A stretch of DNA of 64,000 bases from assembly GCA_016839555.1 (NCBI GenBank), contig JAEOUA010000006.1, forward strand, positions 187,982 to 251,981, in the 5' to 3' direction. The translations under genes were made by a program, and so were the position numbers. Position 1 is the stretch's first letter. The number at the start of each line of letters is the position of its first letter. The notes under the pieces were generated by a model that was given only the letters and a program-made list of their open reading frames with translations, was not told the origin of the DNA and made no database searches. The DNA is from Promethearchaeota archaeon (GTDB lineage: Archaea; Asgardarchaeota; Lokiarchaeia; Sigyniarchaeales; SOKP01). Shown here piece after piece: positions 6,603 to 35,246 of the stretch.

Positions 6603-7184
6603 CTTTTTCTCCTTTTTTTCTGTTTTAATAACTTATTATTTTATTAAATATTTTTTTTCTTATTTATTCTATTTTCCATATTACAATTTTTTTCCTGTGA
6701 AGGAAAAGATTTGCTATTTTAGCTTTATTGTAATAATTGGAACCTAGTAATGAAATGAATTTTCTTTTATTCATGTAAATTCGAATATCTATTATTTAAA
6801 TTGATGAGATTAAAATATAAAAAGATATCGTTAAAAATGGTTTTAATACAGAATTTAAATATATATTTAAAATTTTAAAGATTTCGTGAATAATTTCTAA
6901 GTTGCCCGTTCTTATTAAATTATCAGAATATAGGAGATTTTATTTTATTAAAATTATTTTAAATTATTCAGTTCTATTTTAATTTTTTCTGAAAATCAAA
7001 ATGAAAGGAGAAAAAGCAAAATCTGTTTGTTTATTAGTTTAATTAGTATTTTATGTTTTATTTAAAGATGGTTAAGTGATATATACTTAGTATTGATCTT
7101 AAGAAAACATTTAATAACTCAAGTAATATAATTTTATATATAATCATTTTACGAAATAAATAAAACGGATCAAAGGTTAAATCA

Positions 7185-7964
7185 ATGAAACTTGATGGTA
7201 AGATATTTATAATAACTGGAGCTGCTGAGGGAATAGGGGCTGCTATTTCAAGATTATTATCAGAGAATAATGCTAAATTGGTTTTAGCAGATTTAGAGAA
7301 ACCAGATCTTCAGTTGGATAATTCAATATCAATTCAATATGATCCATTATCATTAAAAGAAGTACAAGCTGTGGTTTTAGAAGCAGTAAATCATTTTGGG
7401 CCTAAAATTGATGGTATCATCAATACCATTAGCACATGTCTCGTACGACCAGTATCAAAATCAGAAGTAAATAATTGGGATTATCAAATGGATTTTAATT
7501 TTAAAAGTGTTTTTTTCTTAAACCAAGCATTAGCTAGACAAATGATTGAAAATGGGAATGGAGGAGTATTTCTAAACTTGGCAACGACCGCAGCCTTATC
7601 GGGAGCTAGTAATATAGCGGCATATTCAGCAAGCCAAGCTGCGATTATGAATCTATCTAACACTATGGCATTAGAATTAAGGGAATATAATATCCGTTCT
7701 AATTGTCTTATTATTCCTTATATAGAAGCCACCGCAATTAAATATGGCGAATTATTTTATGGCAAAGATCCAGAAAGAATACGTCCTATGGCCTATACAT
7801 TTTCGCCGATGATGGAATTAATTGAACCATCTGAAGTTGCAAAGATCGTTCTATTTTTAGTCTCAGAGGATTCACAAGTAATGAATGGGCAGACTATTGG
7901 AATTTTAGATGACGAATTAACAAACATAAGAAATATATTAAACAGAATAAGATTAAAAGGGTGA
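7185..7964 (+). CDS. Short-chain dehydrogenase/reductase (SDR) with degenerate catalytic motif (YSASQ instead of YxxxK)
   Basis: TGAAEGIGAAI Rossmann motif. The Ser-Tyr region reads AAYSASQAA, so the catalytic Lys is replaced by Gln. The stop overlaps the next gene by 4 bp (ATGA). Confidence 0.75.
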   Translation: MKLDGKIFIITGAAEGIGAAISRLLSENNAKLVLADLEKPDLQLDNSISIQYDPLSLKEVQAVVLEAVNHFGPKIDGIINTISTCLVRPVSKSEVNNWDYQMDFNFKSVFFLNQALARQMIENGNGGVFLNLATTAALSGASNIAAYSASQAAIMNLSNTMALELREYNIRSNCLIIPYIEATAIKYGELFYGKDPERIRPMAYTFSPMMELIEPSEVAKIVLFLVSEDSQVMNGQTIGILDDELTNIRNILNRIRLKG

Positions 7965-25857: not shown

Positions 25858-26056
25858 TTTTATTCATTTTAAAAAAATATTCTTAATTAAAAACCTTGCT
25901 TAATTTAAAACGTTTTCTTTATTATAATTAGGAATGACTATATAGACCAATTATAATATTAAAGCTATAATGAGAGTAAGATAAATATTCCAGTTTTTAA
26001 AAAAATATAAGTCAGAAAAAAATGGAAAAAAAAGAAAATATAAATTTAATTATTAT

Positions 26057-26848
26057 TTAAAATTCATAACCGCAATTGCGGCATAGGTGTTTCTTACCAT
26101 ACATAGGTGTTTGGCCGAGGTAGCTGATTACTTTCGATTTATCTTCGACTGTTCGAATATCCTTCCCGACAGCACCACATTTTGGGCACGAAATCCGTTC
26201 TCTTCCTCCAGTTACTTTTTCTACTTCGGGAGGTTCGTAAAATTGTAATTTTTTCTGAGCCTCTTTCAAATTTTCTTTGGTATTTTCAAGAGTGGTTGTT
26301 AATTCTGAAATTTTTTTATCTCTTTGATCTATTGTAGTAGTGGCTTGCTGTAATTGTTGTTTTATATCAGATAAATCCTCAGCCTTTTGAGTTCCTTTCT
26401 GTAGTTTTTGTTTAACTTCTGACAATTCTCCTTGAAGAGTTGAGATATTTTCTTTAGAACTATCTAATGAGGTGGTCAATCTACTTTTCTCATTTTCAAG
26501 ACTTCCAACTTGGCTTGTGAGTGCCTCTACTTTGGGAGTTAAATTCTCTACTTTCGAATTTAATTCTGCATTTTGAGAACGCAAATCCTCTAGTTTGGAG
26601 GTTAAATCACTATTTTGGGTATTTAATTCATTAATTTTTTGATCTTTTTCGGTGCCTTTTTGCCTAGATTCTTCAAGATTTTGAGTGGTCGTCGCTAACT
26701 TTTCTTTAGTCTCAGCTAAATCACTTTTTAATTTGGAAAGGTCTCTCTCAAGGTCATTAAGTTTTTTACGTAAATCTAATAACATTTTACCCTCAACCTT
26801 TTGAGGCTTATCGGGTCTTTCTTCCACCTTTTGCCAATCTATAGACAT
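26057..26848 (-). CDS. Coiled-coil protein with conserved MSIDWQ N-terminal head and C-terminal C4 zinc ribbon (paralog 1 of 3)
   Basis: N-terminus MSIDWQKVEERPDKPQKVEGK. About 180 aa of heptad-like Leu/Glu/Lys/Gln-rich sequence. C-terminus CPKCGAVGKDIRTVEDKSKVISYLGQTPMYGKKHLCRNCGYEF. Confidence 0.6.
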   Translation of the reverse strand: MSIDWQKVEERPDKPQKVEGKMLLDLRKKLNDLERDLSKLKSDLAETKEKLATTTQNLEESRQKGTEKDQKINELNTQNSDLTSKLEDLRSQNAELNSKVENLTPKVEALTSQVGSLENEKSRLTTSLDSSKENISTLQGELSEVKQKLQKGTQKAEDLSDIKQQLQQATTTIDQRDKKISELTTTLENTKENLKEAQKKLQFYEPPEVEKVTGGRERISCPKCGAVGKDIRTVEDKSKVISYLGQTPMYGKKHLCRNCGYEF

Positions 26849-27031
26849 AATTGATTCACACTTGGTTTATGATATATTAAGATTTATGTTATATAATAAT
26901 TTCGATACTCATTTAATTTCGTAGTAATATTATAATTAATAAATCAAGAATTAATATATCTTTTTTTTTTAAATTATTATTGTAATTCTTCTCTTCTAAT
27001 ATAAATTATTCTCATTTACCTATTTCTTAAG

Positions 27032-27922
27032 CTAGAATTCTGTCCCACATTTTTTACACACGCGCTTCTTCGCATAAATTCTCGATTGTCCCATATAACT
27101 TATCACTTTTGTTCGATCTTCCATCGTTTTAATATCTTTCCCAACGGCTCCGCACTTGGGACATGCAATACGTTCTTTTATTGGTTCTTCTTCTTTCCTT
27201 GCTGAGGGTCTTCTAAAGGTTGTTTGTTCTTTTAGGACTGGTTTTTCTTTAATAGCTCCTGTTTGTTGAACTGGTATCGTTCCTTTCAAAAGATCCTTGG
27301 TTCCTTCAAATTTTGAGTTTAATTCTGAAATTTTTGTCTTTTTTTGATTAATCTGATTAATTGCTCGCTCTAATTGTTCTTTTATTCTTGTTAATTCAAG
27401 GTTTTCGGATGATTTTTCTTTAGCCATTTCCGAGAGCTGCGTAGATAGTGTTTGTGTTTTTGTAGTTAATTCTCGGATCGATTCGTTTGAATTCTGTAAT
27501 CTGAGGTTAAATTCTGAAATCTGAGCATCTTTTAGTTTAATCTTTGCATTCGCATCTTCTAAGTTTAGTTTATATTGGGCTACTTCTTCCTCTAACTTTT
27601 CTGACGACATAGTAGCTTGAGTAAGTTGCATTTCAAGATCCTTTACTTTAGTTGTATAGAGTTTAAGTCTCTGATTTAATTCGTTAACTTGTTGATTTAA
27701 ATCTTCAACTATTTTTTCCTTCACTTGTAAACTTCGCTGTGTTTGTTCGAGTTCTTTTGTAATGGAAATTAATTTTTTTTCAGTTTCAAATTGTTGGTTC
27801 TGAGTCTGAGCAAGTTGTTTTTCTAGCCTCTCGTTTTCATTTCGAATGTTTAATAAGGTTTGACCCTCAATTTTTAATTTCTTATTTGGGTTTTCTTCCG
27901 CCTTTTGCCAATCAATACTCAT
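27032..27922 (-). CDS. Coiled-coil protein with MSIDWQ head and C-terminal C4 zinc ribbon (paralog 2 of 3)
   Basis: N-terminus MSIDWQKAEENPNKKLKIEGQ. C-terminus CPKCGAVGKDIKTMEDRTKVISYMGQSRIYAKKRVCKKCGTEF. Confidence 0.6.
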   Translation of the reverse strand: MSIDWQKAEENPNKKLKIEGQTLLNIRNENERLEKQLAQTQNQQFETEKKLISITKELEQTQRSLQVKEKIVEDLNQQVNELNQRLKLYTTKVKDLEMQLTQATMSSEKLEEEVAQYKLNLEDANAKIKLKDAQISEFNLRLQNSNESIRELTTKTQTLSTQLSEMAKEKSSENLELTRIKEQLERAINQINQKKTKISELNSKFEGTKDLLKGTIPVQQTGAIKEKPVLKEQTTFRRPSARKEEEPIKERIACPKCGAVGKDIKTMEDRTKVISYMGQSRIYAKKRVCKKCGTEF

Positions 27923-28092
27923 AAATTATCTCACAATTATTCTAATAAGATGATTGTCTTAATATATCTTTTTTTTTTTGTATCTTATAAATTTTATTTC
28001 TAAGATGAAAAATCTATTTTTTTATACAAAAAGATGATTTCACCTTTGCGGTTTACAAATGATGTGTTAAATAACCTTTGATCCTTATGTAA

Positions 28093-28917
28093 TTAAAATT
28101 CTGTACCACATTTTTTACACACACGTTTCTTTGCGTAGATACGCATTTGACCTTGATATCTGAGAACTTTTGATCGATCCTCCATTGTTTTAAGATCTCT
28201 TCCAAAAGCACCACATTTGGGACAACGGACTCTCTCATCTATTGCTGTGGGTTCCTCAATCTCTACTTCAGGTGGAGGATTATATAACTCATCAATTGGA
28301 TGATCAGATTTTTCCATTTTTAAGATAAGATTTTTCAAAGCGGTCGATTTTCCTTCAAGTTGCGATGTCAATTCTGAAATTTCCGAGTCTTTTTCCTGAA
28401 GTTGTAATGATAACTCCGAAATCTTCTGATCCTTTTGGTCAGTTTTTGGCACGATCATTTTTTTTTCTTCTAATTGAGCGGATAATGCCGAAATACGTCC
28501 TTCTTGTTTATTAATAGTTTGATGAGCTTCTTTTAATTTTTGATTGGAATGGTCTAACTTTAACTTAAGATTTGCTATTTCTTCGTTATAATCATATGAA
28601 ATAGAAGATAATTTATCTAAACTGATTTCAAGATCTTTAATTTGAGTGGCATATGATTCTAAGGTTTGATTTAATTCTAGTATTTGCGAGACCAAATCTT
28701 CATTAGCTTTTTCTTTTTCTGCAGCTTTTCTTTCGCTCTCCTCTAAATCTCTAGAAATCTGTTCTAAAATTTCTTTCGTATGAGATAATTCATCTTTTGT
28801 TTCAATAAGCTCTCTTTCAAGGTTGTTTGTTAACTCTCGTAAACCTATTAATTCTTTCCCGTCTATTTTTTGTTTTTTATCAGGCTTTTCTTCTGCCTCT
28901 TGCCAATTTATAGACAT
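28093..28917 (-). CDS. Coiled-coil protein with MSINWQ head and C-terminal C4 zinc ribbon (paralog 3 of 3)
   Basis: N-terminus MSINWQEAEEKPDKKQKIDGK. C-terminus CPKCGAFGRDLKTMEDRSKVLRYQGQMRIYAKKRVCKKCGTEF. Confidence 0.6.
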   Translation of the reverse strand: MSINWQEAEEKPDKKQKIDGKELIGLRELTNNLERELIETKDELSHTKEILEQISRDLEESERKAAEKEKANEDLVSQILELNQTLESYATQIKDLEISLDKLSSISYDYNEEIANLKLKLDHSNQKLKEAHQTINKQEGRISALSAQLEEKKMIVPKTDQKDQKISELSLQLQEKDSEISELTSQLEGKSTALKNLILKMEKSDHPIDELYNPPPEVEIEEPTAIDERVRCPKCGAFGRDLKTMEDRSKVLRYQGQMRIYAKKRVCKKCGTEF

Positions 28918-29192
28918 AACTAAGTCATAAATAATAAGAGCAATTTATTTATATAAATTTTGTCCTCTTAAATCAAAAAATTATTTGAATAAAAATTCAA
29001 TATTTTAGATAATAACATCTGCAGGATATATGAAAAAATATAGCTGGTAAACGATTTAATTGTGTCTTTTTTATTATTTTGAGATAAGAACTCAATAATT
29101 AATCTATTTATATGGAAATTTATCTAGATCAAATTTTAAGTAGCATTGCTTTAAAGTTTATTAAACTTCAGCAAAATTATATTTTACTACTT

Positions 29193-33090: not shown

Positions 33091-33813
33091 ATGATGAAGA
33101 AAAAAGCATCTTGCGTTGTTATTTTTAGCGGAGGGCAAGACTCTACAACTTGTCTTGTATGGGCGTTAAAAAAATTCGATAAAGTATCTGTTATTAGCTT
33201 TAATTATGGGCAAAGACATAAAATCGAATTAGAGTGTGCTAAAAATATTATTGATATTTTGAAATCGAGAGAAAAACACCAGATTGAATGGCTCGGAGGG
33301 AATCAAATTGTTGAATATAAAATCGTAGATATATCATTTGTGTCTGATTTATTACAAACGGCTATGATTCAGGAAGAAGAAATCACTTATGATGAAGAAA
33401 CAGGGCTTCCAACTACTTTTGTCCCCGGAAGAAATATTCTATTCATAACCGTTGCAGCAGCCTATTCATACCAAAAAGAGATAAAGCATTTAGTAGCCGG
33501 AGTTTGCCAAACCGATTATTCAGGATATCCAGACTGTAGAGATGCTACTATAAAATCCCTACAAGCCACTCTGAAATTAGGGTTGGATTATGACATCATT
33601 ATTCATACTCCGCTTATGTGGAAAACTAAGGCAGACACCATTAAATTAATGGAAAAATTAGGGGGATTAGAATTATATAAATATACTCATACTTGTTATA
33701 GGGGAGAACGGCCAGCTTGTGGCAAATGTTTTGCATGCCAGCTTAGATTAATGGGCTTTAAAGAGGCAGGATTAGAAGATCCATTAGAATATAAAAGTAG
33801 AGAAATTATTTAA
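33091..33813 (+). CDS. queC: 7-cyano-7-deazaguanine (preQ0) synthase QueC
   Basis: PP-loop VVIFSGGQDSTT. C-terminal Zn cluster CYRGERPACGKCFACQLR. Confidence 0.85.
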   Translation: MMKKKASCVVIFSGGQDSTTCLVWALKKFDKVSVISFNYGQRHKIELECAKNIIDILKSREKHQIEWLGGNQIVEYKIVDISFVSDLLQTAMIQEEEITYDEETGLPTTFVPGRNILFITVAAAYSYQKEIKHLVAGVCQTDYSGYPDCRDATIKSLQATLKLGLDYDIIIHTPLMWKTKADTIKLMEKLGGLELYKYTHTCYRGERPACGKCFACQLRLMGFKEAGLEDPLEYKSREII

Positions 33814-33827
33814 AATAATCTAAGAAA

Positions 33828-34283
33828 TTATTCATGATATATAGCCATACTGCTTTTAGATTCTCCCACTTTTACGATAATTTCTTTGTTTGAATAAATC
33901 TCCTTCAATTTATCATGAATATATTTCGCTAATAGCTCACTGGTGGTGGCAGGTAATGGTAATAAAGAAACATCAGATTTAGGAAACACATATCTTTTTT
34001 TAGGGGTTTTGACCTCAATAGAATCACCGTCTTCTTTAATTTTTATATCAACAGCTTGAGTCGGGACGAGAATATAGTGATCTAAGGGTTCTACAATGGC
34101 CTTTAATTCTTTCTTAAGTTCCATAAAATCAATGACAAAATAATTTTCATCCAATTTACCGCCGACTTCCACAGAGACGTAATAATTATGACCGTGTAAT
34201 CTTGAGCATTTGGGATGTTCTTTAAGAAAATGACACGCGCTAAATTTAACCTTTGATTCATTTACAATTATTTTATAACTCAT
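33828..34283 (-). CDS. queD: 6-carboxy-5,6,7,8-tetrahydropterin synthase QueD (PTPS family)
   Basis: CSRLHGHNY catalytic motif; 151 aa. Confidence 0.8.
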   Translation of the reverse strand: MSYKIIVNESKVKFSACHFLKEHPKCSRLHGHNYYVSVEVGGKLDENYFVIDFMELKKELKAIVEPLDHYILVPTQAVDIKIKEDGDSIEVKTPKKRYVFPKSDVSLLPLPATTSELLAKYIHDKLKEIYSNKEIIVKVGESKSSMAIYHE

Positions 34284-34391
34284 TTTATTATCCTGTAGGT
34301 TTGAATAATTTACTCTAATTAAATTTTTTCACAGATTTTTATTTAATGGTATTTTTGTTAAGTAATATAATTTTTAATTGACTTAATAATT

Positions 34392-35246
34392 TTATAATAA
34401 ATTAAGAAATTTATGAGCCTGAATTGATAAAGAGATATTTTCTGGTGGCAAATATTTTGCTGCCCTATAAAATATTTGGTTTAATTTCTCATTTGAAATT
34501 GAAAATTTCTTTTTTAATTCTTTTTGTTCTAAATAGACGGGTTGGATTGCCAAGCCTATATGGTTACCATCTTGATATCTAATATTCGAAAGCTCGTGAG
34601 CAATCCAATCAATATCTTTAATTTTTGTGTGAGAAGTAACAATAATTTTGGTAAAGGTGAGTACATTCACAGATGTCATAGTTCTTATGAATTCTAATTC
34701 TTTTCTTACAAGTTTTTCCCATAGATTAAATTCGGCTGCTTGTGAGCTTCTATCTTTAATATCACAGCAGCAATAATTAAAGAGTTCTTTAATTTGAGCT
34801 AATTCTACTTTATTTGGTAGTACTGTAGCATTAGTTTCTAAATATAAGGGAAAATTAATACCATTTTTTTTCAATGATATTCCTATTTCTAAAAGGAACT
34901 CAAGTTGGCACATAGGTTCTCCTCCAGTAAAGCTCATGGAATGCAGATCATTCGTTATAAGGTTTTTAATAATTTTAATTAGCTCTTGGATCTTGATAGG
35001 ATTATTTGCAATGGTAAAATCTTGAGAAGAGGGTTTTTTTTCATACTGATAATGTTTCAGTTTAAAATCTTGAGAGTTGGGTGTATCACAGAAAAAGCAG
35101 CCAGAAGTGCCAAATTCCTTATTGGCAACATTACAGCCCGCAAATCTTAAAAATATCTGTTTTTTGCCAAAACAACTTCCTGGAACTGTTCCGCCTTCTC
35201 CTTGAAATGATGAGAATATTTCCGAAAGATAGCCTTGCTTTTCCAT
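34392..35246 (-). CDS. queE: 7-carboxy-7-deazaguanine synthase QueE (radical SAM)
   Basis: N-terminal EIFSSFQGEGG and an atypical Cys cluster AGCNVANKEFGTSGCFFCDT, as in QueE-type radical SAM enzymes. Confidence 0.65.
   Translation of the reverse strand: MEKQGYLSEIFSSFQGEGGTVPGSCFGKKQIFLRFAGCNVANKEFGTSGCFFCDTPNSQDFKLKHYQYEKKPSSQDFTIANNPIKIQELIKIIKNLITNDLHSMSFTGGEPMCQLEFLLEIGISLKKNGINFPLYLETNATVLPNKVELAQIKELFNYCCCDIKDRSSQAAEFNLWEKLVRKELEFIRTMTSVNVLTFTKIIVTSHTKIKDIDWIAHELSNIRYQDGNHIGLAIQPVYLEQKELKKKFSISNEKLNQIFYRAAKYLPPENISLSIQAHKFLNLL

Follow-up and report, generated by a model that had tools for sequence, protein, structure and literature searches.

In Lokiarchaeota, two-domain gelsolins (2DGel) end in a small module that Akil et al. 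(2022; PMC9433394; Commun Biol 5:890) named the 'Zn domain' and to which no role was assigned. In the 2DGel proteins of Loki and MK-D1 this domain is preceded by a linker of 69–79 residues; it is widespread in Loki proteins, where it was described as 'exclusively' C-terminal and also as stand-alone, and it displays a conserved Tyr-bearing loop and is 'likely' a binder of a cellular feature (PMC9433394). Consistent detection outside Loki was not achieved in that study (PMC9433394). Here we analyze three tandem genes, A, B and C, located at positions 26,057–28,917 of a 64,000-nucleotide stretch of the genome of a Promethearchaeota archaeon (contig JAEOUA010000006.1 of assembly GCA_016839555.1, positions 187,982–251,981; hereafter the window). 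Their products combine a conserved N-terminal head, a coiled-coil rod and a C-terminal module homologous to the Zn domain. The head–rod–Zn architecture is new, whereas the Zn domain within it was already known and is uncharacterised. The genes are best read as anciently duplicated tandem paralogs, transcribed separately, from a family of cytoplasmic rod proteins confined to Asgard archaea; no description of this family was found in the searchable literature.

The identity of the C-terminal module was established by profile comparison. A hmmsearch of the module profile A3 against PDB sequences retrieved residues 283–332 of 7WHG_G (E 4.9e-5, 26 bits), chain G of 7WHG being the Lokiarchaeota 2DGel gelsolin, and hhalign of A4 against the 7WHG Zn segment gave a probability of 96.5% (E 7.5e-10). 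At the level of profiles, the module of A, B and C is thus shown to be homologous to the Zn domain of Loki2DGel (KKK44901.1 / PDB 7WHG; MKD1-2DGel). Both comprise a (CxxC)2 module of 45 amino acids (aa) at the extreme C-terminus, a flexible or helical linker in front of it and a long hairpin with conserved Tyr. The cargo is what differs: two gelsolin domains in Loki2DGel, a novel head and a coiled-coil rod in A, B and C. The Loki2DGel module shows ~32% identity, and the copies in A, B and C lie much closer to the family consensus. All testable Zn-domain features of Akil et al. (2022) are present in the three modules, zinc binding itself being predicted.

Searches with the whole proteins returned little else. 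No Pfam model matched A, B or C above its cutoff, and only generic coiled-coil matches (tropomyosin, crescentin rod) were obtained; sub-threshold scores were 24.8 bits for Filament (cutoff 40), 22.7 for Rod_CreS (cutoff 100) and 31 for CALCOCO1 (cutoff 36). None of the NCBIfam models reached its cutoff either, the best scoring 46.9–51.1 bits against cutoffs of 300–1000 and covering SMC/Rad50 arm regions only. Membership in SMC, Rad50 or ASRP was rejected: the proteins are too short, lack ATPase motifs and match arms only. The Zn module has four Cys only, and no FYVE domain was among the best 25 Pfam families per protein listed at E <= 1. The isolated head had no Pfam match, its profile found nothing significant in the PDB, and a WH2/thymosin-like assignment suggested by visual resemblance was dropped for lack of HMM (hidden Markov model) support. 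A word-indexed protein search with a full protein returned the query, paralog A and a single ortholog cluster, and nothing else; with profiles of the 46–53 aa module it recovered only short proteins or fragments, which carry little architecture information. A, B and C therefore stand outside the intermediate filament (IF)/crescentin, SMC/Rad50, FYVE and defence families, whose defining features were tested for and not found. A preliminary description of this locus had stated that the architecture matches no family; this holds for curated families, and no mapping to a well-characterised family with established function was obtained, but the C-terminal module is not new, being the Zn domain known from Loki2DGel.

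That description had also reported three same-strand genes encoding 263–296 aa proteins, and the open reading frames (ORFs) confirm this. All lie on the minus strand in the transcription order A, B, C, and their parts are arranged as follows.

28093..28917, minus strand: gene A, 274 aa, first in transcription order
28837-28917, minus strand: head of A, residues 1-27
~28303-28857, minus strand: heptad rod of A, residues ~21-205, followed by a Pro-containing linker
28096-28233, minus strand: Zn module of A, last 46 aa
27032..27922, minus strand: gene B, 296 aa
27842-27922, minus strand: head of B
~27305-27862, minus strand: rod of B, followed by a longer Pro/Lys-rich linker
27035-27172, minus strand: Zn module of B (Zn HMM 94 bits; head HMM 71 bits)
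26057..26848, minus strand: gene C, 263 aa
26768-26848, minus strand: head of C
26240-26791, minus strand: predicted single helix of C, residues 20-203, from AlphaFold2 (AF2)
26198-26239, minus strand: disordered linker of C, residues 204-217
26060-26197, minus strand: Zn module of C

Gene A scores 83 bits with the Zn HMM and 70 bits with the head HMM, and within the window the head and Zn module HMMs match genes A, B and C only. Opposite-strand ORFs in the region are limited to 51–61 aa and are unsupported.

The three proteins align end to end, with conserved termini and a diverged middle. Identity between paralogs is 57–61% in the head, 32–33% in the rod and 57–78% in the Zn module. The head spans 27 residues with the consensus M-S-I-D-W-x-K-A-E-E-x-P-D-K-x-x-K-[VI]-x-G-x-x-L-L-D-L-R, and the C-terminal ~46 residues are conserved as CPKCGA.G[KR]D...C[KR][KN]CG[TY]EF. 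The cysteines follow the pattern CPKC-x30-C[KR][KN]C in A, B and C, all four being invariant in 18 family sequences, and four residues follow the last CxxC in each of the three proteins. The MSI[DN]WQ head, the CPKCGA module and the status of the genes as tandem diverged paralogs were all noted in the preliminary description and are borne out here. So is the heptad pattern of the rods: the a/d contrast exceeds that of shuffled sequences with z = 9.0 (A), 8.8 (B) and 12.2 (C), and hydrophobic periodicity peaks in the Fourier spectrum at 3.5 and 2.33 residues. The rods are genuine coiled coils. The internal repeats previously claimed for the rods fared less uniformly, as the example cited in C is present but at the DNA level a single one-heptad duplication was detected (21 nt x 2.1, gene C, 26525-26567).

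Structure prediction agrees with the head–rod–zinc-ribbon layout that had been proposed. An AF2 model of paralog C, computed as a monomer from a family alignment of 21 sequences, reached a mean predicted local distance difference test score (pLDDT) of 86.2 and consists of a short helix (residues 5–10), a loop, an uninterrupted helix from 20 to 203 (pLDDT >90), a disordered stretch at 202–216 (pLDDT <50) and a β-hairpin ribbon at 220–263 with strands 231–244 and 247–256. At a rise of 0.15 nm per residue, the rod helix of ~184 residues measures ~27 nm. The linker between rod and Zn module is flexible, contains proline and spans ~15 residues. When modeled in isolation (51 sequences), the Zn module forms a zinc ribbon with a long hairpin (pLDDT 83; strands 21–34 and 37–46), and the invariant residues Y33 and Y40 lie on either side of the hairpin tip. 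The module is basic, with an isoelectric point (pI) of 9.3–10.1, and the rods are acidic to neutral. Since the sequences contain no signal peptide or hydrophobic segment, A, B and C are taken to be cytoplasmic.

Proteins identical to B (P0001) and A are on record from a 603,911-bp NCBI contig. A syntenic locus, L001, found on JGI, ENA and Logan contigs of a second lineage, has three genes in tandem (309, 321 and 279 aa), with the ortholog of A at L001:10001-10930 (78% identical) and that of B at L001:11099-12064. The six proteins of the window and L001 pair 1:1:1 in gene order, so the triplication is older than the split of the two lineages. On one side, the synteny includes an M20 peptidase and a metallo-β-lactamase gene; on the far side, URO-D and a second metallo-β-lactamase recur, with extra genes inserted between these two and the array. 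In a survey of one genome per GTDB species, 16 family loci were found, all in Asgard metagenome-assembled genomes (MAGs) labeled Promethearchaeota, Promethearchaeia, Hermodarchaeota or Hodarchaeota. Metagenomes added 53 further loci, mostly single-copy and on short contigs. Isolate BC1 (L006) carries three tandem copies beside an M20 peptidase. Such three-part orthologs, maintained under purifying selection, refute the possibility that the array is a low-complexity artefact. In a neighbour-joining (NJ) tree of head plus Zn module, C groups with the widespread single-copy type, and the derived branch is the pair of A and B. The groupings of A and of C with their respective orthologs are supported at 98% and 76%; all other nodes have weak support.

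Selection was estimated per segment between orthologs by the Nei–Gojobori method. The resulting dN/dS values are 0.12–0.19 for heads, 0.20–0.34 for rods and 0.06–0.11 for Zn modules; all segments are under purifying selection, which is strongest on the Zn module and then on the head. Orthologous rods differ in length by 7, 14, 14 and 21 residues, and because these indels are always whole heptads, the heptad register is preserved. The preliminary description had taken the divergence of the rods as a sign of diversifying pressure; the values and the register-preserving indels lend this no support, and the rods show ordinary coiled-coil drift under loose constraint with no sign of diversifying selection.

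An exhaustive HMM search for the Zn module was run on 1.84 billion protein cluster representatives. It yielded 385 clusters at E<=1e-3, of which 177 reach E<=1e-10. The best 150 of the 385 clusters have a median of four residues after the last CxxC, and the module is almost always at the extreme C-terminus. In a rough classification of these 150, the module is joined to IDW-head rods in 16, to other coiled coils (often partial, some with alternative heads) in 52, and to a Pro-rich partner in 6; it stands alone in 21, the CxxC pair is absent from 5, and the remaining 50 form a group of other proteins. The head–rod–Zn family is the dominant carrier of the Zn domain. Pfam identified GTPases in this last group: P0104 (410 aa) combines an N-terminal region of ~165 aa, a Ras-family GTPase domain (E 5e-50), a linker and the Zn module, and P0119 (587 aa) is Arf/Ras-like with the module at its end. 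P0146 (202 aa) also ends in the module and otherwise has no Pfam match. A rare exception to the C-terminal rule is P0094 (219 aa), in which two tandem N-terminal Zn modules precede an unrelated C-terminal region. Stand-alone proteins measure 47–67 aa, and the 47-aa form P0034 is >=90% identical in many Heimdallarchaeota MAGs. Since entries labeled Thorarchaeota, Hermodarchaeota and Hodarchaeota carry the module as well, it is pan-Asgard and extends beyond the published Loki range. All named sources are Asgard MAGs except one Bathyarchaeia-labeled record, and this survey, which the preliminary description had called for, leaves the family Asgard-restricted apart from that single label.

Around the stand-alone Zn genes (loci L022–L027), a GNAT acetyltransferase gene occurs nearby in two lineages. 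It lies directly upstream of P0035, in divergent orientation, and at a distance of two genes upstream from P0034; the gene after P0035 encodes a VTT/DedA-family membrane protein. As a functional clue, the GNAT linkage was rejected as too common to interpret.

Considering these features, we tentatively favor the view that A, B and C, which would have a docking tag in common, serve as scaffolds or tethers, one of the candidate roles that had been proposed for them and a reasonable one. The Zn domain would act as an address tag, joined through the flexible linker to different cargo and directing it to one conserved cellular target, for which a membrane surface, a cytoskeletal or other protein complex, and ubiquitin are candidates. 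Members with a coiled coil would pair in parallel, and the dimers would hold their heads ~27 nm away from the docking site; the heads at the far end may bind a second partner or another rod; the three paralogs would then be subfunctionalised versions. Arguments for this reading are the strictly C-terminal position of the tag behind a flexible linker and its promiscuous choice of partners (gelsolin, GTPases, coiled coils and Pro-rich proteins), and further the strong constraint on tag and head, the whole-heptad rod indels, the retention of the triple array in L001 and L006 and the conserved TATA-like motif before each gene. Eukaryotic Rab proteins carry a hypervariable tail and a lipid anchor at a position comparable to that of the Zn module in P0104. 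By this analogy, a membrane or cortical target would be attractive, because the position of the tag on the Ras-type GTPase mirrors the Rab tail with its anchor. An in-register heterotrimer of A, B and C is not favored, since rod lengths change independently between orthologs.

Several points weigh against the docking-tag scaffold. The Zn-domain target, the head partner and the dimer are proposals, and structure prediction covered the monomer only. Family lengths of ~220–417 aa imply no fixed spacing. Head and Zn module are moreover separable, because each can be exchanged: two tandem pairs of IDW-head and coiled-coil rod genes (L020:6001-6663 and 6788-7519; L021:827-1495 and 1665-2387) encode proteins that end in a different motif, MVHKGFLSDKELE (...AP[EQ]I[IL]E.I....M[VA]HKGFLSDKE[LF][ED]..L), in place of the zinc ribbon, and in L017–L019 and Hodarchaeota members the Zn module follows a different N-terminus that replaces the head. 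The alternative tail of L020 and L021 has no Pfam match. Across the family loci and the stand-alone Zn gene contexts examined, no functionally informative neighbour is conserved; those that recur do so in one clade only (ADP-forming acyl-CoA synthetase, MFS transporter, ThiI and metallophosphoesterase), none of them informative. Zinc ribbons very often bind nucleic acids, and the only fold resemblances of the module, non-significant ones, are to the Rpb9/TFS and Rpp21 ribbons. In addition, no co-sedimentation of the Loki2DGel Zn domain with rabbit F-actin was observed (PMC9433394).

The docking-tag reading can be compared with several known systems. In eukaryotes, EEA1 consists of an N-terminal Rab5-binding zinc finger, a dimeric rod and a C-terminal FYVE domain. 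As an analogy only, A, B and C may resemble it in having a short binding element at the N-terminus, parallel coiled coils as a spacer and, at the C-terminus, a small basic zinc-binding module; however, FYVE has 8 Cys, 2 Zn and PI3P motifs versus 4 Cys here, there is no sequence or fold relation, and the EEA1 rod measures ~200 nm compared with ~27 nm. NEMO, optineurin and NDP52/TAX1BP1 likewise pair a coiled-coil dimer with a terminal zinc finger that docks on a conserved small protein, and Asgard archaea encode ubiquitin systems. The zinc fingers of these adaptors are nevertheless of other types and the CALCOCO1 match covers the coiled coil only; ubiquitin binding by A, B and C is pure conjecture.

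An alternative is that A, B and C are self-assembling cytoskeletal filaments of the IF, crescentin or FilP kind, in which head and tail drive head-to-tail or lateral assembly of dimers. This would suit a rod layout with conserved end segments, and three co-conserved paralogs could co-polymerise; like crescentin and FilP/Scy, the proteins have long heptad rods, and weak matches to crescentin, tropomyosin and IF rods were obtained (Rod_CreS, Filament and Tropomyosin; crescentin structure 8AFE, E 1.2e-3). These matches, however, fall far below the family cutoffs and amount to typical coiled-coil composition noise. Both a zinc ribbon and a head of this kind are lacking in the known filament proteins, whose phylogenetic range also differs; the tail module is common to gelsolin, GTPases and stand-alone proteins, none of them filament formers; rod length varies across the family; and the AF2 model of C displays no head–tail contact. 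We consider filament formation unlikely.

A second alternative, which we rate slightly below the filaments, holds that the proteins are anchored to nucleic acids, the basic ribbon binding DNA or RNA and the rods organising chromatin or the nucleoid or serving the transcription or translation machinery. The pI of the module fits this proposal, as does the general tendency of zinc ribbons to bind nucleic acids. The best Foldseek neighbours of the module, none significant, are the ribbons of Rpb9/TFS and RNase P Rpp21, and with the Rpb9/TFS/TFIIS and Rpp21 ribbons it shares the generic fold of two CxxC knuckles clamping a β-hairpin. Furthermore, one member bears the JGI name 'predicted nucl...', and the 47-aa stand-alone form is highly conserved across Heimdallarchaeota MAGs, like a core-machinery subunit. 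Against this stand the occurrence of the module on gelsolin and on Ras/Arf GTPases, proteins that in eukaryotes have cytoskeletal and membrane-traffic functions, the failure of the sequence and fold searches to return a significant match among nucleic-acid-binding ribbons, and the absence of visible linkage to information-processing genes.

The remaining proposal of the preliminary description, a defence or virus-interaction family with rods under diversifying selection, can appeal to tandem paralogs with diverged middles and to weak PADLOC matches to the SMC-like arms of LmuB and JetC, but it is largely refuted and highly improbable, because dN/dS is below 0.35 in every segment, the PADLOC (<=35 bits) and PHROG matches cover coiled-coil arms only and are noise, no relatives were found among IMG/VR viral contigs (on which ground a viral origin of the gene family was also rejected), the locus is syntenic between lineages among metabolic and housekeeping genes (peptidase, metallo-β-lactamases, URO-D), and its surroundings contain no nuclease, ATPase or other effector that could be a partner.

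A separate finding concerns relatives outside the window. Five single-copy family genes contain an insert of exactly 30 nt, in frame and with a stop codon, in the region encoding the zinc ribbon. The inserts represent four different sequences at three sites, and their removal restores the consensus protein exactly.

L008:6889-6918 and L009:6868-6897: insert between MYAK and KHVC
L042:2378-2407 and L045 (insert AATCTTAACCGAATTCCGGTTTAGAAGGAA): insert between TCP and MCG
L076 (insert ATAGTTCATTAATCTCTAGTGAACTGGAGA): insert between HIP and MYAKK

The inserts of L042 and L045 occupy the same site and have kept their length, yet they are identical at only 10 of 30 positions; both can fold into a stem of nine positions (9/9 and 8/9 paired) closed by a 5-nt loop. 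Over the 41 codons 3' of the insert, the proportion of differing sites between these two genes is 0.78 for synonymous (pS) and 0.045 for nonsynonymous (pN) positions. It follows from this contrast that the exon after the insert is still translated in frame, and therefore the insert must be removed or skipped. Translational bypass of the gene-60 type was rejected, as L042 and L045 lack matching take-off and landing codons.

All four insert sequences share one layout. A 4-nt strand of exon 1 and a 3-nt bulge are followed by the 9-bp stem, whose 5-nt loop ends in UC; then come a 4-nt intron strand, a second 3-nt bulge and exon 2. The central helix pairs at 4/4, 3/4, 2/4 and 3/4 positions, and the inner stems at 8–9 of 9. 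Bulge-helix-bulge motifs are subject to a cut-position rule; the insert junctions fall after the second bulge nucleotide. Judged from their predicted folding, the inserts fit a relaxed bulge-helix-bulge geometry and are candidate spliced mini-introns in Asgard protein-coding genes. To our knowledge, the intron of cbf5 is the only archaeal mRNA intron known; among the TACK lineages, Crenarchaeota splice it (PMC2738675). Asgard archaea are reported to possess an (αβ)2 splicing endonuclease with an L1 loop, and this loop has been linked to broad specificity in TACK lineages (PMC5829648). An exact 24-mer of the L008 insert was absent from JGI metagenome contigs, and a crude scan of the window and the family loci for further split ORFs gave no convincing extra case; P0027 was set aside as a contig-edge fragment.

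In L008 and L009, ~118 nt are 100% identical (L008:~6860-6985 versus L009:~6839-6964), covering the insert, both flanks, the last exon, the stop codon and ~18 nt of the 3' untranslated region (UTR). The bodies of the two genes have 74% protein identity and saturated synonymous sites (pS 0.74). Constraint at the nucleotide level on an RNA structure could account for this identical stretch, as could a recent transfer or conversion event.

Within the window, the spacers around the three genes have a GC content of 16–21%, compared with 33–35% in the coding sequence.

28918..29192, minus strand: spacer upstream of A, 275 bp, GC 19%, AT-rich
27923..28092, minus strand: spacer between A and B, 170 bp, GC 21%
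26849..27031, minus strand: spacer between B and C, 183 bp, GC 16%
25858..26056, minus strand: spacer after C, 199 bp, GC 16%, with T8 and T7 runs directly 3' of the stop codon

The preliminary description had placed AT-rich spacers of 180–275 bp after the genes; their AT richness stands, but A, B and C are followed by 170, 183 and 199 bp, whereas the spacer of 275 bp precedes A. This latter spacer contains a TATA-like box, AAAATTTATATAAATAA, at ~28944-28961, which is kept in the L001 ortholog, and is a putative promoter of A. Between A and B, a T-run follows the stop codon of A, an A11-GATATATTAA motif lies at ~27957-27979 and TTGTGAGATAA (GTGAGAT element) directly precedes the ATG of B; the spacer may thus comprise a terminator, a promoter and a ribosome-binding site. 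Both motifs of B are conserved in its L001 ortholog, and TTGTGAGATAA also precedes the L001 ortholog of C; gene C itself has only a diverged version of it. The spacer between B and C contains A10-GATATATTAA at 26951-26970 (minus strand) and further TATA-like stretches, and would be the promoter region of C. The upstream motifs common to B and C were probably duplicated along with the genes. The T8 and T7 runs after C resemble an archaeal oligo-T terminator and may serve as one. Overall, a TATA-like AT-rich motif is located upstream of every gene and conserved in the orthologous locus, and oligo-T follows A and C; given these upstream motifs and oligo-T runs, A, B and C probably form three separate transcription units.

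An Rfam scan of the whole window gave no match, and no tRNAs are present in it. Elsewhere in the window, at 33091-35246, ORFs of 240, 151 and 284 aa correspond by length and order to the QueC, PTPS (QueD-like) and radical-SAM genes of L001; this synteny and the matching lengths suggest a 7-deazaguanine cluster (archaeosine/queuosine precursor).

The wider importance of these proteins lies in their C-terminal module. The Zn domain is common to gelsolin, Ras/Arf-type GTPases and its most common partner class, the coiled-coil rods, and identifying its target would locate a whole set of eukaryote-like Asgard proteins at once. Taken in its entirety, the picture of a pan-Asgard Zn address tag that would bring gelsolin, Ras/Arf-type GTPases and coiled coils to one surface, of IDW rods acting as ~27-nm tethers and of mini-introns in family genes is improbable. 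If it were true, the Zn domain would play the role of eukaryotic lipid anchors or FYVE-type domains, and the IDW-head rods would be a prokaryotic forerunner of golgin/EEA1-style tethering. If the inserts are spliced, they would be examples of Asgard pre-mRNAs spliced by the tRNA endonuclease and would widen the range of archaeal mRNA splicing.

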